A DNA stretch of 64,000 nt. Origin: Dehalococcoidia bacterium. GTDB taxonomy: Bacteria; Chloroflexota; Dehalococcoidia; Lucifugimonadales; UBA3495. Below, piece after piece: positions 29,854 through 52,210 of this stretch (its first letter is position 1; each line of letters starts with the position of its first letter). The position numbers and the translations under genes were made by a program. The stretch is from contig OZ241919.1 of NCBI GenBank assembly GCA_965203835.1, forward strand, positions 3,220,188 to 3,284,187, read 5' to 3'. The notes beneath the pieces were generated by a model. The model did not search any database. It had not been told where the DNA came from and saw only the letters and a program-made list of their open reading frames with translations.

Positions 29854-29912
29854 GAAATCCGGTAAATGTTCATTCAGAAAATTACTTTGCACAAGCCCTG
29901 CATTTTGGCCGA

Positions 29913-29921
29913 TGTTATAAT
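29913..29921 (+). promoter_or_regulatory. Extended -10 promoter element
   Basis: TGTTATAAT (TGnTATAAT consensus) lies 20 nt before the ATG at 29941. GAGGA lies between them as the SD. No good -35 element. Confidence 0.45.
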
Positions 29922-29940
29922 CGGCGCGAGGATAGTTGGC

Positions 29941-31182
29941 ATGATAACGAACATCACACTGGGCAATTTCAAGTGCTTCCGGCACGTGAGCATCGACCCG
30001 AAGCTGGTCACGGTCCTGATTGGGCCCAACGGCACGGGCAAGTCGGGCGTTCTGCAGGCGTTGATGTTGCTCAAGCAGTCCAGGGACGACGTCAGGTCAT
30101 TGAAGTTGCAGGGTGATTTGGTGTGGTTCGCGCCGGAAGCTTTCGGGCTTCAAAGTCTTGATGCTGTCTCCGCGACCGTTAGGTTGTCGGTGTCCGGGCA
30201 TGAGTATATCGAAGCGGAGACGGTTGAGAGTCAGGTTGATTTTTGGGTTGACCTCAACTATGAGGGTGATGCCAAGCTAACAACCAAGATTGGAACGACG
30301 GTGTTCAGAATTCTCGGGCGGGAATTCCGGGTGTTTTTCAATCAAGAAGAAATATCGTCCAGTCTCAATACTCCCTTAGGTGACATCTTTTATGAAGAGC
30401 GAAATGGAATCAACAATTTCAGGGTGATAGGTTATTCAGGGATAGCAGAGGCCATCCCCGATGTTTGGGAGCAAATATCCCAAGCCCCCATGAATACCTT
30501 CGCAAATATAAAGATGGTCTCGGCGGCCAGGGCATTGACCCGAGGAACCTATCACTTGGGGCCTGAACTTTCCGATGATATTTCGAGCGCCGGTGGGTTG
30601 GGGAAACAGGAAGCGGACACGGCTACGACGTTGGCTTATTCTCGAAGTGACGTCGAAAAAGTTTCCCGTTCGATGAAACGAGTCACGGGGGTTGGATTCA
30701 GAACGGATACCGTTCCTCCGCAATCGGCAAAACCAATTTCCGAGGCTAAGTCTGGGGATTTCAGTCTTGTTGCTGAGGGGTTCGGGACGAACGCTCTCGT
30801 CCGACTCTTGTTTGAAGTGGTGCGGGCCGTTCCGGGGGCTACGGTGTTGATCGAGGAGCCGGAGGTCCATCTTCACCCCAGGGCGCAGGCGGACTTGGCG
30901 TCGGTGCTGGTTGAGGAGGCTAAGGCGGACAGCAAGCAGATAATCATGACCACGCACAGCGAGCATGTGGCGGGAAGACTGCTTACCTTGGTGGCGGAAG
31001 GGAAGCTGTCGCCGGAAGAGATCGCCATTTACTCTTTCGAAAAGGATGAGAACGGCGTCTGTTCTGCCCAGGAGATCGAAGTAACCGAGCACGGCCAGGT
31101 AGTGGGAGGTCTGAAGAGTTTCTTCGAGACGGACTTGGACGAAATGCGTCGGCTTGTGGATGCGCTGCGTGCTAGAGCATGA
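29941..31182 (+). CDS. ABC/SMC-like ATPase of the AAA_15/AAA_21 type (possibly with DUF3696-like C-terminus)
   Basis: Walker A GPNGTGKSG, Walker B VLIEEPEVHLHP and H-loop MTTHSEH. The start is set at MITNITLGNFKCF (29941), the usual N-terminus of these ATPases. Confidence 0.8.
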   Translation: MITNITLGNFKCFRHVSIDPKLVTVLIGPNGTGKSGVLQALMLLKQSRDDVRSLKLQGDLVWFAPEAFGLQSLDAVSATVRLSVSGHEYIEAETVESQVDFWVDLNYEGDAKLTTKIGTTVFRILGREFRVFFNQEEISSSLNTPLGDIFYEERNGINNFRVIGYSGIAEAIPDVWEQISQAPMNTFANIKMVSAARALTRGTYHLGPELSDDISSAGGLGKQEADTATTLAYSRSDVEKVSRSMKRVTGVGFRTDTVPPQSAKPISEAKSGDFSLVAEGFGTNALVRLLFEVVRAVPGATVLIEEPEVHLHPRAQADLASVLVEEAKADSKQIIMTTHSEHVAGRLLTLVAEGKLSPEEIAIYSFEKDENGVCSAQEIEVTEHGQVVGGLKSFFETDLDEMRRLVDALRARA

Positions 31183-31649
31183 CACCCCGCTTCATCCTGG
31201 ACGAAAACGTTGTAATACTGGCGCAGCAGGGGCTTGATGAAAGAGGAAATCCCAGCCCCGTTTGCGCCGAACTGGTCCGACGGATCATCGAGATTTGCCA
31301 CACCATCGTGGTGGATGACGTTCTGTGGGACAAGTTTGACGGACAACTCAACCGGCCCGGTTACCAACTTCCTCAAGCCGGTCCCAACCTACTGCGTGTT
31401 CTTTGGAACGCCCTCACGATCGTCAATAAGATAGACGGTCTGGGTAGCACCGCGCCCCCCTTCGGCGAAGAAGGGTTGATTCCATCCGGCAGTATAGATG
31501 ACACTTATATCGTGAGGCTGGCAGTGGAGTTCGGGGCAATATTTGTCACGACTGACGGGCCTATTCGGGACGACCTGCGGGACTCGGGGATTCGGGATGC
31601 TTACGGGTTGACGGTGGTTTCACCTGACGAGGCATTGGGGATATTGTGA
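31179..31649 (+). CDS. PIN-like nuclease-fold protein (putative effector), translationally coupled to the ATPase
   Basis: ATGA overlap with the ATPase stop. FILDENV (strand 1 Asp), then DDTYIVRLAVEFGAIFVTTDGP (late Asp pair) resemble the PIN acidic residues. The assignment was made by eye only. Confidence 0.5.
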   Translation: MTPRFILDENVVILAQQGLDERGNPSPVCAELVRRIIEICHTIVVDDVLWDKFDGQLNRPGYQLPQAGPNLLRVLWNALTIVNKIDGLGSTAPPFGEEGLIPSGSIDDTYIVRLAVEFGAIFVTTDGPIRDDLRDSGIRDAYGLTVVSPDEALGIL

Positions 31650-38068: not shown

Positions 38069-38635
38069 CTATTTCTGTTGACGAAAGAGCCTCCAGACCG
38101 GAGTAGAGAAGCCGGGAAGCAGGTCTCCTCCATCCAGTTCGTCGTCCTCGGTCAAAGTCACCGGGTCCATGCCAAGCCGATATATCGTGACGGCCACACG
38201 GCCCGGGTCGGCCATCCACACTTGACGCGACCCGTAACGGAGCCACATCGCCGCCTTGTCGGCCAATTCCGCATAAGTGTTGCTGGGTGACTTGATCTCC
38301 ACGGCCAAGTCGGGGGCGAGCTCCGGGTAGCCTACGGTGTCTGATGGCACTCGCCTTGGGGAAATCCAGGACACGTCAGGCGCCCGAACGGTATCGGGGT
38401 TGCTTTCCAGCCGGTAATGAGGTTCCACGCAAAGACCGTCATAGCCGATGGACTCGCCATACAAGAACAGCAGCCCGCTTATCCTGCCGCCCACAAATCC
38501 GTGCAAATATCCTGGAGCCACTTTCTCGCTCAACACACCCCGAATCAACTCGTGCCTTCTGCCTTCATCCGGCATCAGCAGCAGTTCTTCGGCGGTAACC
38601 AGCTTGTGCTTGGTAGTCATCTTGCGGCGCACCAA
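38069..38635 (-). CDS. Uma2-family endonuclease, paralog 2
   Basis: HELIRGVL...APDVSWI...APDLAVEIKSPSNT...K...Y...G...VWMADP. Confidence 0.85.
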   Translation of the reverse strand: MVRRKMTTKHKLVTAEELLLMPDEGRRHELIRGVLSEKVAPGYLHGFVGGRISGLLFLYGESIGYDGLCVEPHYRLESNPDTVRAPDVSWISPRRVPSDTVGYPELAPDLAVEIKSPSNTYAELADKAAMWLRYGSRQVWMADPGRVAVTIYRLGMDPVTLTEDDELDGGDLLPGFSTPVWRLFRQQK

Positions 38636-40040: not shown

Positions 40041-40838
40041 CTACACGACTGCCGACACGCCGCCGTCGATGTTGACCGCGATGCCGGTGAGGTAGCTGGC
40101 CCTGTCGGAGGCCAGGAAGGCGATGACATCGCCAGCCTCTTCTGGCTCGCCGACCCGCCCGATGGGGACCGACCGGCCTTGGGCCAGTTGGTCGTAGAAC
40201 AGGTCTTCGCCAAGGCCGGGATCGGTTTGCAGCCGGGCCTCGTACCGCCTGCGGTGCTGGCCGCTCTTTATTAGACCGATGCAAACGGTGGACACCAGGA
40301 TGTTGTCCTGGGCCAGGTCCTTGGAAAGGCCCTTGGTGATGGCTATGCCGGCGGCGCGGGAAATGGAGGTAGGCATGGAATTGGCGCCGGGAGTGCGGCC
40401 TCCCAGGTTGGTCACGTTGATAATGCGGCCGCCGCCGACCTTGCGCATCTCCGGGATGGACTGCTGGATGAGCCTTACCGCGCCCCAGACCTTCAACTCG
40501 AAGTCGAACTCCCAGTCCTCTTGACTCACTTGCTCGAACCCCTTGGCCATGGAGGTCCCGGCGTTGTTGACCAGGATGTCCAGCCGCCCGAACCGGTCAA
40601 GGGTAGTCTGCACTACCCGCTCGGCGGTGTCGGCGCCGGTTACGTCGGCGGAGATGGGGATAACCGCGCCCTCGGTGGCGGCGCGGATTTCCTCGGCGGC
40701 CTCGTCGAGCATTTCCTGACCGCGGGCCACGATTACGACGTTAGCGCCCTCTTTGGACATGCTGAGGGCGGCGGCTCTGCCGATGCCGTCGCTGCCGCCG
40801 GTGATGATTGCTACTTTGTCCTGAAGTCCAAGGTCCAT
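40041..40838 (-). CDS. SDR-family protein with non-canonical active-site residues
   Basis: TGGSDGIGRAAA cofactor motif and NNAG are present. Where S...YxxxK is expected, I read VTN...T-SIS-R by hand alignment. The start is set at the ATG at 40838 behind GAGGAG. Confidence 0.8.
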   Translation of the reverse strand: MDLGLQDKVAIITGGSDGIGRAAALSMSKEGANVVIVARGQEMLDEAAEEIRAATEGAVIPISADVTGADTAERVVQTTLDRFGRLDILVNNAGTSMAKGFEQVSQEDWEFDFELKVWGAVRLIQQSIPEMRKVGGGRIINVTNLGGRTPGANSMPTSISRAAGIAITKGLSKDLAQDNILVSTVCIGLIKSGQHRRRYEARLQTDPGLGEDLFYDQLAQGRSVPIGRVGEPEEAGDVIAFLASDRASYLTGIAVNIDGGVSAVV

Positions 40839-41208
40839 GGGGAGAACTCCTCTGAAGGGATGGATCATGCTGGCCGTGGGCCATTATACAACATGTTGGA
40901 GGGTGGGGAGTGGGGGGAGGTGATAGTCGAAGGGTTAACGATGCTTGGAAGAGACGGAGGTTCTATCCTCCCCAACATCCAGAAATCGGGCAAATCACCC
41001 TATGAAGGGACAATCGCCGAGGTATGAAGGTTTCTGAATCCCTGTCGGGCGACTGGATTATCACTCTTGGATGTTGAATCCAAGTTGGACATCCGGCACC
41101 ACAAACGGGAAAACGGATATGTGAAACATAGCAACTGTGGATCAGAAGCGGGCTATGTTTTCACCACATCTCCCACAAGCCCAAACCTCGGCTAGGGATC
41201 CCCCGGTA

Positions 41209-41664
41209 CTAAACCACCGCTGGGTACAGAACCCCTTCACTGCGAACCAACGTTGCCAAGTCAGCCGCCACCTGCAGTGGATCATCCACCACAAATATCC
41301 CAGCGTGAGAATCATCCTTGGGTCCAGGCCGATGGACAACATTTGGATGAGCACCGCCATCCAAAACCATCGCACGTATGCGCTCGACGTTCAAGGTAGC
41401 GAACCTGCCCCTGGGCTTGATCGTCAACTTCGCACCAACCGCAATACGAATCTGAGCGATCGCCAAACCGTGGTTCAGAGATAACAGCTCCATCCAATTG
41501 ACCGAGGTCTCCCAACCGTTGAGGTGCTGCCTGAAATCAAAAGCATCAGGCAATACCTCATCCCGTGCAGGTGCCGCCCGCGCAACAATCGAGCTCGGCT
41601 TACAGTATCGTGTTACATGGTCAGATGAACGGATAGGAAGTTGAATCACCCTAGCATCAACCAC
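41209..41664 (-). CDS. Hypothetical protein (cassette gene 3, 151 aa)
   Basis: Third ORF of a tightly packed co-directional trio, overlapping gene 2 by 19 nt. No family recognised. Conspicuous residues: SDHVTRYCKPS, ETSVNW, DDSHAGIF. Confidence 0.6.
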   Translation of the reverse strand: MVDARVIQLPIRSSDHVTRYCKPSSIVARAAPARDEVLPDAFDFRQHLNGWETSVNWMELLSLNHGLAIAQIRIAVGAKLTIKPRGRFATLNVERIRAMVLDGGAHPNVVHRPGPKDDSHAGIFVVDDPLQVAADLATLVRSEGVLYPAVV

Positions 41665-42887
41665 CGCGTAAATTCGGAAACGGCTGTCAACACTGATTCC
41701 GCAGGGAGAACCCCGTTACACCGGAGACGGTCAAACCCATTAACCGGCGGACCTGAATTGGCTGCAAACCTTACTGAACCAGTCGGCTGGAACACCATGA
41801 CCAGAATGCCATCACCGTTGCCCCAGTAGCTAAAGCTACCAGAAGCTAGATCATCGTCCTTAACCGATCCCTTATCCACTTCCCGCCTTAAAATCCACGT
41901 GGCCGTCAAGCACCCGGTGGAATCCACACCCAAGCGGTCTGTCGCTAACTGTGGATTGGCCAACATAAACTGCTTCAGCGACTTCAAAGAATCAAACAAG
42001 ATCGGAGGCTCATCGGGATCATCAGCCTGAAGCTCATAAAGGTACTCCAATCGGTCACAAACAACCCCAAGACCACGAACCCGCATCTCTGACAAAGTAG
42101 GAACTGGCTCCTGCTGCTCCTGTGCTGGGAACTTTCCTTGCACTGATCCAGTACGGGTTACTGCTCCACCTAGCAACCTGCCTGTTGATCTCGGAGCCAA
42201 CATTATACGCTGGCCCTCCACGTCCAAGACCACCTTTGTACCGTCCCAGGTCACACCGTCCACCACAACCTCTCCTAACGGTGCCCAATGCCGCTCATCC
42301 AGGCCGAATGTGGACCGATTCAGCAAACCCGCCAAATACTCTAACTCGGGGCCTGTCCAGTGGGAATTATCATCGGTCAAGGCCGCACAGGCAGCCTGCC
42401 ACCATTTTTGAAAATCTTCCCGATCGACAGCCCTGCCGACTCCTCCCAACATCAACGCATATCCGCCACTCAATCCTATAGACTCCCCGATACCCTTTAT
42501 GAGTTCAGCAGTAGGCTTGCCGTGGAATTGATCATAGCCAACCTTACCCAAGTTGCTTAGCCCAGCACCACAAACCCGACCAGCTCCAAGGTCAAATTCG
42601 GAGTCCTTTACCATCTCAGGACCTAGCTTGGGCCGCAGTCCCCTTGAAGTCTCAGTATAGTTTGAGTAGGTTTCTACCCCACAAAATGTGGCCATATCCC
42701 TGAGACCGGGACGCAACTGCTCCTGTCCCAAGAAAGATGCAGGGTCATAAACAGTGTCCGCAACTACTTTGTTACCAAAAGTCAACCCGGAATCCAATAA
42801 AGTGGCACCCGAACGCTTCCGGCCAAAAAAGTCGATAGCGGTAGGCCTAGTCCTCGCAGTCGGTGAAGTCATGTTATTTGATACCAA
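41646..42887 (-). CDS. Hypothetical protein (cassette gene 2, 413 aa)
   Basis: Longest ORF in a lower-GC segment. It starts either at 42887 (14-nt overlap with gene 1) or at the ATG at 42872 (TAAcATG junction). It has a Gly-rich central segment (GAGLSNLGKVG ... GLSGGYALMLGGVG). No family recognised. Confidence 0.7.
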   Translation of the reverse strand: MVSNNMTSPTARTRPTAIDFFGRKRSGATLLDSGLTFGNKVVADTVYDPASFLGQEQLRPGLRDMATFCGVETYSNYTETSRGLRPKLGPEMVKDSEFDLGAGRVCGAGLSNLGKVGYDQFHGKPTAELIKGIGESIGLSGGYALMLGGVGRAVDREDFQKWWQAACAALTDDNSHWTGPELEYLAGLLNRSTFGLDERHWAPLGEVVVDGVTWDGTKVVLDVEGQRIMLAPRSTGRLLGGAVTRTGSVQGKFPAQEQQEPVPTLSEMRVRGLGVVCDRLEYLYELQADDPDEPPILFDSLKSLKQFMLANPQLATDRLGVDSTGCLTATWILRREVDKGSVKDDDLASGSFSYWGNGDGILVMVFQPTGSVRFAANSGPPVNGFDRLRCNGVLPAESVLTAVSEFTRWLMLG

Positions 42888-43488
42888 CCTTTGTCAACTG
42901 ACTGGTCAAGGTCTGCCGTTCCTCTCCAAAAAGAACCTGAATCTCATCGCTACTCAGTAACCTGTCAATGGGTTCACTCACATAGGCTCTGAACATAAAC
43001 CTGGATTCCCCAACAACCTCCACGTCAATACTATAGCTCTTGGAACCTTCCCTGTGAGAAAGCGTCATCAGATCACAGGACAGCCCAGTACCCAATTCGC
43101 TTCGCAACTCATCCCGCAGGAATCTTTGGCCAAGCCAATCCCCAGGGGACTCTCCACTGGTCATTTCCTGTTCGAAGAAAAAAATAATTTCGTATGACCG
43201 AGGATTCACATCGCCAAGCAATCCCAAAACGCTGGTAAGAACACCCGGTAACTTCTGTGAAGCTTCTTCTACGTTCCAGCTGAGGTCACGAACCTCTGTC
43301 CGATACGGAGACTGTAAAACCTCAATCTGGTCCCGGTGACTTATTACCCTGAAAGAATCCATAGAGGGATTTACAGACAGAGGCGGCCGTAAGAAACTGC
43401 GCAACGCTTCAGCCGAAAAATCCCCCGGCGTGCTCAGGGGATCATAGACTACAGCAACGGCACTACCGAGAAGATCATCAGGAGTCAT
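42874..43488 (-). CDS. Hypothetical protein (cassette gene 1, 204 aa)
   Basis: First ORF of the trio, 250 nt downstream of the trpB stop on the same strand. No family recognised. Confidence 0.65.
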   Translation of the reverse strand: MTPDDLLGSAVAVVYDPLSTPGDFSAEALRSFLRPPLSVNPSMDSFRVISHRDQIEVLQSPYRTEVRDLSWNVEEASQKLPGVLTSVLGLLGDVNPRSYEIIFFFEQEMTSGESPGDWLGQRFLRDELRSELGTGLSCDLMTLSHREGSKSYSIDVEVVGESRFMFRAYVSEPIDRLLSSDEIQVLFGEERQTLTSQLTKVGIK

Positions 43489-43738
43489 ACCTTAGTAACC
43501 TTTCCAAAAGGTAACTACGCAGAGCCGAGCGGCTCTGTTATCACGCCGCGATTGTTCCCTTTCCCGCACATTTTGTCAAGGAGCCAGTGCTACGCCCAAT
43601 GGCTTATTGCAATTTTACCAGTTTTATCGGGGGACTCGAAACTCTCACCTGACAAATCGGATGTGTATCCCACCCACTATCAAGCAATGCCAAATCCTCA
43701 AGCGACTCGTGTCGTGAGCACACCACCGAAGGATCAGC

Positions 43739-44947
43739 CTACATCTCTATCCCCGCGGCCTTGGCCACAATGTCTATGTCCTTGTCGCCCCTACCGCTCA
43801 GGCAGACGAGGACGGTCCGGTCCTGGGGGAGGGTTTTGGCGAGTTGGGCGGCGTGGTGGATGGCGTGGGATGGTTCTAGGGCGGGGATGATACCCTCGGT
43901 GCGGCAGAGGAGGTGGAAGCCTTCGAGGGCTTGAGAGTCGGTGACGCCGGTGTAGGCGGCGCGGCCGGACTCCTTCAGGTAGCTGTGCTCGGGGCCGACG
44001 CCGGGATAGTCGAGGCCCGCTGAAATGCTGTGGGTCTCGTGGACTTGGCCGTGTTCGTCCTGGAGCAGGTAGGACTTGGAGCCGTGGAGTACGCCGGTGC
44101 GCCCGGCGGTCAGAGTGGCGGAGTGCCGGTCGGTCTCAACGCCCTCGCCTCCGGCCTCGACGCCCACCAGCTTGACGGTGTCGTCGTTGAGGAAGGCGTG
44201 GAAAGCGCCGATGGCGTTGCTGCCTCCGCCGACGCAAGCGACCACGTAGTCGGGGAGATGTCCGGTGGTGTCGAGCATCTGCTGGCGGGCTTCCACTCCG
44301 ATGATGCGCTGGAAGTCACGGACCAGCATGGGGTAGGGATGGGGGCCGACGACGCTGCCGATGAGGTAGTGGGTGGTCTCGACGTTGGTGACCCAATCAC
44401 GGATGGCCTCGTTGATGGCGTCCTTGAGAGTGCGGGTGCCCGACTCCACGGGGATGACCTCGGCCTCCAAGAGGCGCATCCGGAAGACGTTCAGGGACTG
44501 CCTTTGAACGTCCTCGGCGCCCATGTAGACGATGCACTGGAGGCCCAGCATGGCGCAGGCGGTGGCGGAGGCGACGCCGTGCTGGCCCGCGCCAGTCTCG
44601 GCGATTATTCGCTCTTTGCCCATGCTCTGGGCCAAAAGGGCTTGTCCCAGGGCGTTGTTTATCTTGTGGGCGCCGGTGTGCGCCAGGTCTTCCCGTTTGA
44701 GATATATTTTCGCGCCGCCGCATTGCCGGGTGAGGTTCTCAGCATAGTAGAGGGGCGTGGGACGCCCAACGTAGGTGCTGAGGAGGTGGGCCAGTCTGGT
44801 TTGAAAATCAGGGTCTTCTCTGACGGCTGCGTAGGAGGCCTCCAGTTCCTCCAAGGCGGCCATGAGGGTTTCGGGGACGAATTTGCCTCCGAAGTCGCCG
44901 AAGTGGCCCTGTGCGTCAGGAAGAGTGGCGCGATTTTCAATTACCAT
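43739..44947 (-). CDS. trpB: Tryptophan synthase beta chain (TrpB1 type)
   Basis: [18 protein letters not shown] lysine in [11 protein letters not shown], and GGGSNAIG. Confidence 0.97.
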
Positions 44948-47617: not shown

Positions 47618-47914
47618 CTACACCAAGTCGGCCTCACTGATTCGCCGCGCCCCGTGAATTACCGTAATTACCACAACCGTGTCTCCATCAATACGATAGA
47701 TTACCCGGTAGGGGTGTACCAGGACTTGGCGAATATCGCGACGTCGGGACTCTGTCAGGATACGACCGGATTCAGGGAAATCGGACAAATTGGTTGCTGC
47801 TTGATATATGGCTTCAAAGACCGCATTCGCGTTTGCTTCCGAATTTCTCGCAATGTAGAGCCATATAGCGTGAATGTCACTGGTAGCTTGCGACGTCCAA
47901 ACTACTCGCGCCAC
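47618..47914 (-). CDS. RelE/ParE-family toxin
   Basis: 98 aa. W...A..D...I..YI ... FPESGRI ... RQVLVHPYRVIYRIDGDTVVVITVIHGAR is the ParE-type pattern. Confidence 0.8.
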   Translation of the reverse strand: MARVVWTSQATSDIHAIWLYIARNSEANANAVFEAIYQAATNLSDFPESGRILTESRRRDIRQVLVHPYRVIYRIDGDTVVVITVIHGARRISEADLV

Positions 47915-48252
47915 TTGGCCAACCTTTGTTTGACCTCCTCGTGGGGGATTACTTCTCCACGCTCCATCTCGTCAAGTCCTATCTCAACCTTAAGAATTAC
48001 GTACAGCCAGTCGACGGCTTCATGGATAGTTTCGTCGTGAGGTAGTCCATCAGGCAAACGCTGTAACGATTCAATTACTTGGGCTTTTTTAAGAGGGAAT
48101 GTAGCTCCAGGAGTAGCGTTTTTCCCATGCCCCACGCGTTCCACTCGAAGTGAAGAGGTGTAGAGCTTGCTTAACCGGACGACGGCTTCGTCGAAAGTGA
48201 AATTGTCCGGAAGTTCCTGTAGCAGGTCCAGGATATCTTCTTTGGCGGTCAT
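47902..48252 (-). CDS. Antitoxin partner of the ParE-like toxin (with internal partial duplication)
   Basis: It overlaps the toxin start by 13 nt. The C-terminal half, LQRLPDGLPHDETIHEAVDWLYVILKVEIGLDEMERGEVIPHEEVKQRLAKW, resembles a short antitoxin family I recall. The N-terminal ILDLLQELPDNFTFDEAVVRLSKLY repeats its first part. Confidence 0.6.
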   Translation of the reverse strand: MTAKEDILDLLQELPDNFTFDEAVVRLSKLYTSSLRVERVGHGKNATPGATFPLKKAQVIESLQRLPDGLPHDETIHEAVDWLYVILKVEIGLDEMERGEVIPHEEVKQRLAKWRE

Positions 48253-48310
48253 GTTGATGCCTTCTAACTACGATTGCGAGGTTGGGTTGATTTTACACTG
48301 TACCGAGCTA

Positions 48311-48535
48311 TCAGATTGGTACCTCTGCCTCGACCAGATATGCTTCGAGCATTGAAGTATATTCTTCCAACGAATCTGTACCGAAGGTTTCTACGTAAAA
48401 GCAAACTGCCGATTTCACATCATCCAAGGCTTCCTGATATGTGTCGCCCTGTCCAACGATGACCCCTTTGAGGCCCACAGGGTAGGCGACGAATCCATCG
48501 ACGTGCTTCTCGACCAAAACTTTCATCCGTTTCAT
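48311..48535 (-). CDS. HicB-like (UPF0150) antitoxin, no HicA seen
   Basis: MKVLVEKHVDGFVAYPVGLKGVIVGQGDTYQEALDDVKSAVCFYVE fits the HicB N-domain pattern (dG.y.a..P.l.G....G.T.eEA......A). The start is taken at an internal ATG and is uncertain (48526-48562). Confidence 0.65.
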   Translation of the reverse strand: MKRMKVLVEKHVDGFVAYPVGLKGVIVGQGDTYQEALDDVKSAVCFYVETFGTDSLEEYTSMLEAYLVEAEVPI

Positions 48536-48629
48536 GGAGTTACACCGTTCGTCCTGCACCAATTCACCGATACTGGTTCAGACTACACCCTTGGATGGGT
48601 GAACGTCTAACAATGCACGGTGCCGCGGA

Positions 48630-51094: not shown

Positions 51095-51514
51095 TCATTG
51101 GTCATCCCGCAACAGAGCACGGAACCCTGCCTGTACGAAATCGCGGTCATGCGCCAAGGCTTCTTGGATGCGCCTTTGCTCCATGATTAAAAAACTTGAG
51201 CAATCGGTGAGGCTCCAACTTTGGTTAAGGCGCTCTCTGTAACGCTCGGTGGCGGCCCAGAACTGCGTGGTGGTCTGCGGCACAATTTTCACGGCAGAAT
51301 TGGCCCGAAGCCCTCTCACCGTTTCTACGGCCAGATGACGCTCGTATCGTCCAATATGGGACATGTGGTTTAGAAACTCGGCCAGCACCATGTCACTTGT
51401 AACTATCTGGCGCGAACCAAGCTGATGGACGATATTTTGCGCTCTCTGATGCAAATCATCACGAGGGTTCGTTATTGCAATCCAGTAGCCGGTATCCGCA
51501 AAGACCTCCCTCAT
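51095..51514 (-). CDS. vapC: PIN-domain toxin (VapC family)
   Basis: VFADTGYWIAITNPRDDLH ... SDMVLAEFLN ... SLTDCSSFLIM ... ALAHDRDF. The acidic PIN residues are all present. 139 aa. Confidence 0.8.
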   Translation of the reverse strand: MREVFADTGYWIAITNPRDDLHQRAQNIVHQLGSRQIVTSDMVLAEFLNHMSHIGRYERHLAVETVRGLRANSAVKIVPQTTTQFWAATERYRERLNQSWSLTDCSSFLIMEQRRIQEALAHDRDFVQAGFRALLRDDQ

Positions 51515-51517
51515 TCA

Positions 51518-52210
51518 TTACTCTTCTTTCGGGAAACCATAGAGGTAATGCTTGTAGTTCTTAGCCAAATCGGACGGAGGAGGAACATATCCTTCCGGTT
51601 CGGGGTTGGATCGGTGGATTTCGGCGAACATTTCCAAAATAGACACAGCCGTCGAGCCGTCTGTAATCTCACGAGGTTTCATTATCGGAGGAACGGTCAT
51701 AACCTCTGAGGTTCCTGCCATTATGTTTTGTCTAATAACGGCATTGTATATAGGGTTACGGCCGTCACATTCGCTGAGAATAATGCTCTCATCCCACCTT
51801 AATGTCTTGCCCCATTTCGCATACATCCGCCGTACTGAGTCTGATATGTCCATTGGAAACGGGTCAGTGTCTTGGGCTGCGATCAATGTTTCATCGACGA
51901 TTCGCGCCGCGTCGAACAATCTTTCTGTCTGATGAACCCGCATTTCCGGAACAATGAACTCTAGGCGTACTGAACAAGAACCCGCGCCGATGTCACTGAT
52001 TCCTAGACGAAAGTCCTGGGCGAACCCTCTGGGCAAGCGTTCCCGGCCAGGGTGTTCCAGCAACCAAGTCTCCCGAATGGTCGCAATCAGAATCGTCCTG
52101 TAAATCAGCAGTTCGTTCAATACATCCAAGTCCAGCCAACCTTCGGTTTCCTCAAAGCGTCCGCCGGTGAAATGAATGTCCTTGAGAAACTGTCTCTCGT
52201 GTTTAGCCAT
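51518..52210 (-). CDS. Large (230 aa) protein coupled to VapC; C-terminal tail antitoxin-like, N-terminal domain unknown
   Basis: The stop TAA is followed by TGAATG of vapC, a 3-nt gap. The C-terminal ...PPSDLAKNYKHYLYGFPKEE resembles the ...HD.YLYG tail I recall from short PIN-associated antitoxins. The first ~190 aa match nothing I recognise. Confidence 0.6.
   Translation of the reverse strand: MAKHERQFLKDIHFTGGRFEETEGWLDLDVLNELLIYRTILIATIRETWLLEHPGRERLPRGFAQDFRLGISDIGAGSCSVRLEFIVPEMRVHQTERLFDAARIVDETLIAAQDTDPFPMDISDSVRRMYAKWGKTLRWDESIILSECDGRNPIYNAVIRQNIMAGTSEVMTVPPIMKPREITDGSTAVSILEMFAEIHRSNPEPEGYVPPPSDLAKNYKHYLYGFPKEE

Follow-up and report, generated by a model that had tools for sequence, protein, structure and literature searches.

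A recurrent three-gene operon inserted downstream of trpB in a Dehalococcoidia genome: a candidate toxin–antitoxin-like defense module

What are three unannotated genes doing between trpB and a short-chain dehydrogenase/reductase (SDR) gene in the genome of a Dehalococcoidia bacterium? The DNA analyzed here, 64,000 nucleotides of contig OZ241919.1 (positions 3,220,188 to 3,284,187, forward strand; assembly GCA_965203835.1), is called the window, and its three genes are called g1, g2, and g3 in the order of transcription. A first-pass annotation made from the letters alone had found no recognizable family in any of them and had suggested an uncharacterized defense or conflict system. Here, we report that the trio is a recurrent operon whose constant core is the C-terminal domain of g2 (g2C) followed by g3. 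We propose, with a probability of about 0.5, that it is a new toxin–antitoxin-like defense module in which g3 would be the effector, g2 a tether or sensor, and g1 an accessory protein. Other loci are referred to by L numbers and two of the relatives of g2 by P numbers.

Results

Gene starts, composition, and selection

The trio lies between trpB (43739–44947) and the SDR gene (40041–40868), with all three genes on the minus strand and co-directional as first described. The longest open reading frames (ORFs) run from 42887 to 41646 for g2 (413 aa, TTG start) and from 41664 to 41209 for g3 (151 aa, GTG start). These upstream TTG and GTG codons are unused by the homologs, which support the shorter starts in Table 1. 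The g1–g2 junction is TAAcATG, a 1-nt spacer with the same spacing in L001, L004, and L008, and the g2–g3 junction is GTGA, a 4-nt overlap with the g2 stop codon that is likewise present in L004, L093, L094, L101, and L106. Of the junctions proposed at first sight, TAAcATG was retained, and the 14-nt and 19-nt overlaps turned out to be artifacts of choosing the longest ORF.

The lower G+C content that had been noticed in spot counts was also found in 300-nt windows (0.47–0.57 over 40.8–43.8 kb versus 0.61–0.68 in both flanks) and in the G+C content at third codon positions (GC3), which was 0.50, 0.53, and 0.55 in g1, g2, and g3 versus 0.73–0.83 in trpF, trpB, the SDR gene, the aminotransferase gene, trpC, and trpD. 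The GC skew of the plus strand changes sign in the cassette (about −0.1 to −0.3; the same-strand flanking genes mostly have positive values), which is a further compositional mark of foreign origin.

Pairwise Nei–Gojobori estimates of the ratio of nonsynonymous to synonymous substitution rates (dN/dS), obtained against L001, L003, L010, and L004, were 0.21–0.25 for g1, 0.11–0.20 for g3, and 0.06–0.23 for the flanking genes. The three genes are real and under purifying selection. The dS values in the cassette (0.25–0.9) were of the same order as those in the flanks (0.36–0.7), so the cassette was probably already present in the ancestor of the window/L001/L003/L010 clade. A word-indexed search of 5.8 billion proteins returned 4, 4, and 2 homologs for the three proteins, all from ENA metagenomes, and the homolog lengths were kept down to 46–53% identity; the 4 homologs of g1, down to 46% identity, are all 204 aa long.

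An insertion at the 3′ end of trpB

The inserted segment was delimited by comparison with L012, a genome with an empty site. DNA homology with L012 ends at window position 43740 and restarts at 40895, and 29 bp intervene in L012, which gives an inserted segment of ~2.84 kb. Nine relatives (L012 and L014–L021; Dehalococcoidia/SAR202) have the gene order trpF–trpB–SDR–aminotransferase with neither the cassette nor trpA in between, and the trpB–SDR gap of trio-free relatives is 29–470 bp. The cassette was found at trpB only in the clade of the window, L001, L003, L006, L007, and L010; the window trpB is 93% identical to that of the metagenome-assembled chromosome OZ253476.1 (L010), a trio carrier. 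In the sister genome L011, whose trpB is 92% identical, the end of homology falls at the same point, and the slot holds different cargo, namely, a 433-aa ABC-type ATPase (PADLOC NsnB 7e-44, HEC-03B 1e-28) and a PIN-like protein. This pair is HEC-03-like in architecture; HEC-03 is a two-gene defense system reported as experimentally protective (bioRxiv 10.1101/2024.01.29.577857). Because different cargo begins at the same point in L011, the trpB 3′ end is a variable cargo slot in this lineage.

The first-pass annotation had placed the trio in the slot where trpA is expected, which is wrong: genomes of this clade do not have trpA beside trpB, whether or not they carry the cassette. In L001–L024, trpA was not found beside trpB; it lies 2–4 kb off in L026–L028 and adjoins trpB only in more distant genomes, from L030 onward. 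Neither trpA nor a remnant of it was found when the 64-kb window was searched by tblastn, for which TrpA of E. coli and three TrpA fragments from Dehalococcoidia served as queries, and the trio had no Pfam or NCBIfam match to TrpA (PF00290, TIM-barrel). Replacement of TrpA was rejected, since the cassette-free relatives also lack trpA at the site and the trio has no TrpA similarity. Horizontal acquisition, which had been suggested from composition, is strongly supported by the empty sites in relatives, the GC3 contrast, and the presence of the same cassette and leader on a serine-recombinase element elsewhere (L004), and the segment is likely to be a self-contained operon acquired in this way. 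Direct or inverted repeats flanking the insertion were limited to short chance-level matches.

Table 1. Features of the inserted segment (window coordinates)
Feature	Coordinates	Strand	Description
Inserted segment, ~2.84 kb (leader, three genes, 3′ tail)	40896..43738	-	blastn versus empty-site genome L012; between trpB stop and SDR upstream region
g1	42874..43488	-	ATG 43488 to TAA 42874, 204 aa; putative accessory protein
g2	41646..42872	-	ATG 42872 to TGA 41646, 408 aa; two-part middle protein; full-length homologs 405–409 aa
g2 variable N-terminal region, residues 1–255	42108..42872	-	Gly-rich (14% Gly); pLDDT <50
g2C, conserved alpha/beta domain, residues ~256–408	41646..42107	-	Profile search; AlphaFold2
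g3	41209..41649	-	GTG 41649, 146 aa; putative effector
Leader, 250 nt	43489..43738	-	Travels with the cassette; end-to-end alignment with L004 leader
Promoter-like TTGACA-N17-AACAAT	43551..43579	-	Consensus scan, 10/12 matches; putative function
Perfect palindrome/hairpin CAGAGCC-GCTC-GGCTCTG	43520..43537	-	Just 3′ of the −10 hexamer; candidate operator or 5′ untranslated region stem
Second small hairpin	43494..43516	-	Overlaps Shine–Dalgarno-like AAGG before g1; weak
3′ tail of insertion, without conserved gene	40896..41208	-	Aligns with L001, L003, L010 only to 41017

Recurrence of the operon

Recurrence of the gene neighborhood, raised by the first-pass annotation as a check, was observed: the three-gene architecture was found in at least eight independent loci (the window and at least seven further), with junctions of 1–4 nt. 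The window clade (window, L001, L003, L006, L007, and L010) carries g1, g2, and g3. Elsewhere, the three products have lengths of 204, 409, and 156 aa (L004/L005), 219, 245, and 142 aa (L093/L094), 217, 337, and 162 aa (L100), 225, 297, and 138 aa (L101), 219, 295, and 165 aa (L102), and 213, 461, and 155 aa (L106, with two g2C domains in the middle protein). On an IMG/VR contig (L099), a 283-aa TIGR04255 protein precedes proteins of 227 and 157 aa. L091/L092 has a pair only (156 and 142 aa), and in L097 a fusion of a methyltransferase with g2C (P0026, 1000 aa) is followed by a g3 homolog. A g3 homolog directly follows every g2C-domain gene examined. The L004 copy of the cassette, including its 250-nt leader, is located on the serine-recombinase element mentioned above.

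The L004 (1625–6877) and L097 (1–3101) loci have a common backbone of a serine recombinase, a helix–turn–helix protein (48% identity), and 228/230-aa and ~100-aa proteins and seem to represent one family of integrative elements whose defense cargo varies. Nmad2 is encoded nearby in L005.

The two parts of g2

An exhaustive profile search with g2 gave 254 representative clusters (50% identity) at E<1e-3, of which three were full length; the remaining matches cover only residues ~255–408. In the 153 family members examined, this part is located at the very C-terminus in 132, and the sequence ahead of it is unrelated and 0–840 aa long. Among the full-length homologs, g2C is near-invariant. The dN/dS values within g2 were 0.42–0.70 for residues 31–255 and 0.15–0.19 for residues 256–408. 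Recent gene conversion as the source of the g2C conservation was rejected because the dS of the C-terminal part (0.49–1.0) is as high as elsewhere and its dN/dS is low; conservation of the C-terminal half reflects selection.

AlphaFold2, supplied with a 149-sequence alignment, predicted residues 260–408 mostly with a predicted local distance difference test (pLDDT) score >90, as three helices, a five-stranded sheet, and a C-terminal helix, whereas residues 1–255 had pLDDT <50. Foldseek found nothing similar to the g2C model in PDB or BFVD (E<=0.001), and no Pfam family was matched across 60 g2C members. In P0026, an MmeI-like N6-adenine methyltransferase has g2C at its end. The L106 middle protein P0019 (6001–7386) contains two tandem g2C domains (residues 142–279 and 308–459) and is followed by a single g3 homolog.

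Conserved residues of g3

All-against-all BLAST comparison of the g3 proteins gave significant matches. The blocks SDHVTRYCKPS, ETSVNW, and DDSHAGIF, which had been pointed out as possibly catalytic, coincide with family-invariant positions (H16, R19, S54, V55, N56, E59, S119, and H120); A41, F42, G86, F88, A89, P113, and L136 are also invariant in 10 diverse members. The invariant His, Arg, Ser, Asn, Glu, and His residues are typical of an enzyme, and g3 may be one. The AlphaFold2 model of g3 was poor (pLDDT 47; 11-sequence alignment), and its Foldseek matches (FosA and others, E>=0.17) are meaningless given this quality. As to a 2H phosphoesterase, we looked for two H-x-[ST]-x motifs ~80–100 residues apart and a LigT/CPDase/AKAP7-type profile match. 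Only H16-V-T-R resembles the motif, the third position of S-H120-A-G-I is G, S, or L family-wide, and g3 had no match at E<=10 in Pfam; this assignment was thus unsupported by sequence, and the g3 model is of too low quality for a judgment by structure.

A lone g3-family protein of 176 aa (WP_040114236.1; HMM 4.5e-19) is encoded on the Rhizobium gallicum plasmid pRgalR602b (L103 5896–6426). No g2C gene is located upstream; the gene lies beside a VapC/DUF433 pair and near nif genes. It is the only match in a cultivated organism and the sole plasmid result.

Database and structure searches

The trio proteins had zero matches at E<=10 in Pfam (2025), NCBIfam (2026), and PADLOC-DB v2, and a single PHROG match at E=0.1, in agreement with the first impression of unrecognizable proteins. 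Searches with 20 relatives of the trio proteins in Pfam, NCBIfam, PADLOC, and PHROGs gave nothing useful, and in PADLOC the relatives had no match at thresholds of E<=0.1 to 1. With six alignments, searches of the PDB by sequence and by profile returned nothing at E<0.1. Neither g2, g3, nor eight relatives matched the recognized toxin or antitoxin superfamilies (RelE/ParE, MazF, VapC, HipA, Doc, RES, HEPN/MNT, HTH, RHH, and AbrB) in Pfam or NCBIfam. No match was found in 50,697 phage genomes; among viral contigs, one locus (L099) was found, and a metagenome scan with a narrower alignment gave 4 short contigs. By these searches, the three families are absent from Pfam, NCBIfam, PADLOC-DB v2, and PHROGs and have no PDB relative. 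A toxin–antitoxin-like operon of defense islands would be a familiar type of system, but its parts and its layout of an adaptor with a variable module would not.

Defense neighborhoods

Restriction–modification (R-M), defense, or toxin–antitoxin genes were found within 6 kb at 7/9 informative loci, a small sample with no background statistic. A type ISP enzyme is encoded directly upstream of the trio in L101. In L094, a 1099-aa Eco57I/N6_Mtase protein is encoded 3 kb away, with MazE, BrnTA, and ParE genes around, and the counterpart of this enzyme in L093 matched PADLOC type IIG (6e-21). A convergent gene in L004 encodes a 989-aa protein with weak PglX/type IIG matches (5e-5). The neighbors in L102, L099, and L106 are DndB, PDC-S20 (5e-138), and a DUF499/HEPN_Swt1 protein, respectively. 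Large N6-adenine methyltransferases of the type IIG/ISP/PglX kind are thus located beside the trio or fused to g2C at 4/9 informative loci. The four enzymes all contain NPPF/Y/W and are mutually unrelated, so the association is apparently with a functional class and not with one family. The methyltransferase motif IV (NPPY/F/W) and domain are absent from g1, g2, and g3, occurring only in the neighbors and fusions at other loci.

The first genes

Three kinds of first gene were distinguished: g1 proper (window, L004, and L008), a 213–225-aa family (L094, L100, L101, L102, and L106), and TIGR04255 (L099). g1 and the 213–225-aa family are collinear over ~180 columns around WLGQRFLR/WLTQRFL, with hhalign E = 2-3e-4 and a probability of 38–46%. 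The L099 first gene encodes a bona fide member of TIGR04255 (4.5e-31, 108.6 bits; NCBIfam cut-off 30 bits). TIGR04255 is described in NCBIfam as a "sporadically distributed" family, and no mention of it was found in the literature searched. Homology of g1 or of the 213–225-aa first genes to TIGR04255 was not supported by HMM or profile–profile comparison: g1 and the L094, L100, L101, and L102 first genes had no match to it, with an hhalign probability of <=0.3%. No Pfam or NCBIfam match to a SecB-like chaperone was found in g1 or the 213–225-aa first genes.

In L008 (8763–11049), a g1 homolog (46% identity) is followed by a 383-aa protein and then by one of 171 aa that has no relation to g3. 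The 383-aa protein has nothing but its first ~25 residues (MxSxTAK...F.RKRxG) in common with g2 and is HEAT-like at its end. The Crinalium plasmid pCRI9333.03 (L105 3986–5816) carries a TIGR04255-led trio of the same layout, in which the middle protein is HEAT-like and the third is 171 aa long. This third protein and its L008 counterpart are collinear over their full length with 22% identity, a weak match (E = 0.056). These shared parts suggest two possible pairings, one between the product of the first gene and the N-terminus of the middle protein and the other between the third gene and the C-terminal domain of that protein. The N-terminal motifs of the 171-aa proteins (RKI..W...LSFW) are vaguely like those of g3 (RYC...LSVNW).

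The leader

The leader has a mean column identity of 89% over five sequences, including the L004 copy in an unrelated genomic context. Both promoter-like hexamers and their spacing are invariant in the window, L001, L003, L010, and L004 and are also present upstream of the L008 g1 homolog. In L004, one pair of the palindrome changes from C·G to T·A and one to T·G with pairing preserved, which is weak evidence from a single divergent sequence. For the second hairpin, RNAalifold gave pairs at columns 233–256, with one compensatory change from U·A to C·G in L004. A structured RNA in the leader was unsupported, as there was no Rfam match and folding was no better than that of shuffles (z = -0.96). 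With low confidence, the leader may be a promoter with a possible operator.

Discussion

Proposed function of the trio

Here, we propose a mechanism for the trio based on its conservation and genomic context. The contextual evidence is good; we infer the mechanism itself, i.e., the protein contacts, the toxicity, the trigger, and the anti-phage activity. g3 would be the effector or toxin, and g2C would bind g3 and hold it inactive. Sensing, or the offering of a bait, would fall to the N-terminal part of g2, which is hypervariable and evolves fast; in P0026, a complete MmeI-like DNA methyltransferase takes its place. Loss or occupation of the bait, e.g., by a phage product or a protease, would free g3. 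For g1, we propose an accessory role as an adaptor or chaperone that acts on g2 at its conserved N-terminal peptide. The module overall would be an abortive-infection or defense system, often alongside R-M enzymes. As to the defense or conflict system first suggested, the context argues for it (R-M, DndB, PDC-S20, DUF499, and toxin–antitoxin neighbors, and an HEC-03-like pair in the same slot), but no match to a catalogued defense family was obtained.

A more far-reaching version is speculative, and we hold it to be doubtful. g2C would be a dedicated adaptor fold that tethers g3 to interchangeable sensors, from short diversifying peptides to entire type IIG-like methyltransferases, and the trio would belong to a new "plug-in guard" class of immunity that keeps watch over the integrity of R-M enzymes, or of other baits, and unleashes an enzyme of a new type. 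None of the three folds would then be a known one. In a parallel branch, with g1 or TIGR04255 at its head, the adaptor would be HEAT-like and the effector a different protein of 171 aa.

Several points weigh against the proposed defense module. The trio appears to have no homology to any toxin, antitoxin, or defense family, and g2 lacks a DNA-binding domain, a feature of classical type II antitoxins. The enzymatic nature of g3 is read from conserved residues only, next to a model of low pLDDT. The low pLDDT of the g2 N-terminal part may reflect merely a shallow alignment. The kinship of g1 to the other first genes appears weak at the hhalign probability obtained, and some loci (L091 and L097) have no first gene. 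About 10 neighborhoods were inspected, many from the same few metagenome projects, and the R-M association is not a statistic; the window copy itself has no R-M gene within several kb.

Alternative explanations

The small, tightly coupled genes could also be a plain addiction (toxin–antitoxin) module that stabilizes mobile elements or islands and has no anti-phage function. Copies are located on serine-recombinase and transposase-rich elements, toxin–antitoxin genes are plentiful in these genomes and in the window, and the window copy has been retained at a chromosomal site across the clade. We nevertheless consider this rather unlikely, because there are three genes and not two, because addiction by itself would hardly account for a hypervariable, fast-evolving g2 N-terminus with one case of fusion to a methyltransferase, and because R-M and defense neighbors recur; the two roles are mutually compatible. 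In another explanation, the trio is an accessory of type IIG/ISP/PglX-like methyltransferases, g2C recruits g3 (e.g., as a nuclease or regulator), and the stand-alone trios are detached or trans-acting. The fusion P0026 followed by g3 and the large N6-adenine methyltransferases within 3 kb in L004, L094, and L101 are as expected of such an accessory. However, the four methyltransferases are mutually unrelated, most g2C proteins have short unrelated N-termini, and no such enzyme is encoded within the DNA examined for the window, L099, L100, L102, and L106, which makes this explanation improbable.

It is very unlikely that the trio has a mobile-element function unrelated to immunity (anti-defense, superinfection exclusion, or a maintenance factor) and was left at trpB as cargo. 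None of the proteins is characterized, and the family is found on serine-recombinase elements and one IMG/VR contig, but the window-clade copy has no integrase or element genes and is still under purifying selection with a dS similar to that of the flanks, and neither the 50,697 phage genomes nor PHROGs gave a convincing match. A housekeeping or tryptophan-related role, e.g., as a TrpA substitute, has only the position after trpB in its favor, and relatives have neither the cassette nor trpA at the site, the trio occurs in unrelated contexts, and it has no TrpA similarity. Spurious ORFs are at odds with dN/dS values well below 1 and conserved ORF lengths. Both are refuted for practical purposes.

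Comparison with known systems

The proposed defense module resembles type II toxin–antitoxin and toxin–antitoxin–chaperone (TAC) systems, e.g., the M. tuberculosis HigBA–SecB-like system, in its small co-directional genes, stop/start overlaps, palindrome at the promoter, mobility, and location among toxin–antitoxin genes. The antitoxin of a TAC system has an unstructured extension on which the third protein acts, and the proposed action of g1 on the N-terminal peptide of g2 would be similar. However, no component is homologous to a known toxin, antitoxin, or SecB, a DNA-binding domain is missing from g2, at 408 aa the putative inhibitor is large, its variable part is N-terminal, and the gene order is accessory, inhibitor, and effector. 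In the PrrC–EcoprrI guard arrangement, a latent toxin is held by an R-M enzyme. The location of g2C–g3 beside large N6-adenine methyltransferases or restriction enzymes, and once fused to one, fits the same tethered-effector logic, but g3 is unrelated in sequence and is no ABC-ATPase/anticodon nuclease, and most members including the window copy have no R-M link.

CapRel(SJ46) is a fused toxin–antitoxin defense protein whose antitoxin part senses a phage protein. It also combines a conserved effector-binding part with a fast-diversifying part, and the dN/dS of g2 residues 31–255 is as expected of an arms-race sensor; the trio proteins are separate, and the families are unrelated. The TIGR04255 operons are similar in that L099 has TIGR04255 in the g1 position before g2C–g3 and that the Crinalium trio resembles the L008 trio, whereas the window g1 itself has no TIGR04255 match. 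The type of evidence is the same as that for HEC-03 (bioRxiv 10.1101/2024.01.29.577857), and the trio alternates with an HEC-03-like ATPase–PIN pair at one slot, but the trio is not in PADLOC-DB v2 and has no family in common with the HEC systems.

If the proposal is true, three unannotated families, one of which comprises at least 254 public metagenome clusters (50% identity), define a new modular defense or toxin–antitoxin architecture in which a conserved pair of adaptor and effector is coupled to a hypervariable sensor and natural fusions to R-M methyltransferases occur, with a new effector fold, a new way to couple abortive infection to R-M systems, and the first functional handle on TIGR04255-type operons. 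The family seems concentrated in uncultured, defense-rich Chloroflexota-type genomes, and to our knowledge, experimental knowledge of such genomes is almost nil. The smaller gain is for annotation: the cassette is an insertion that does not belong to the trp operon, and a variable cargo slot lies at the 3′ end of trpB in this lineage.

Other features of the window and its relatives

Other low-G+C islands of the window carry defense or toxin–antitoxin genes. A 438-aa ABC-type ATPase (29866–31182, plus strand; PADLOC NsnB 1.6e-45, HEC-03B 6e-31, AriA 7e-31) is followed by a 156-aa ORF, and the pair spans 29866–31649 in a lower-G+C island. The N-terminal ~50 residues of this ATPase are near-identical to those of the L011 ATPase (pair at L011 8032–9737, directly after trpB), so the same defense cargo seems to occupy different sites in related genomes. 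In a low-G+C patch (51095–52210, minus strand), a PIN-domain gene (139 aa) adjoins the gene of a 230-aa protein (51518–52210; PADLOC candidate PDC-M32A, 9e-25). Inside the trp operon, between trpG and trpD, genes for a ParE-type toxin (98 aa), a 116-aa partner, and an 83-aa HicB-like protein (47618–48562, minus strand) have a GC3 of 0.52–0.56, and the same insertion is present in L001 and L003.

At 2.6 kb downstream of the cassette, a 188-aa Uma2/DUF820-like protein (38069–38635, minus strand) matched the PADLOC candidate PDC-S03 (2e-11); its position is occupied by a Mut7-C/PIN and DUF433 pair in L003 and L007 and by a 244-aa gene in L001 and L006. Between g3 and the SDR gene, the sister genomes carry ~400 bp more than the window, whose alignment breaks at 41017–40920. 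This extra stretch contains a 95-aa ORF on the strand opposite to the trio (L001 11797–12084, L003 11799–12086, and L006 4965–5252), which had no Pfam match and is absent from the window.

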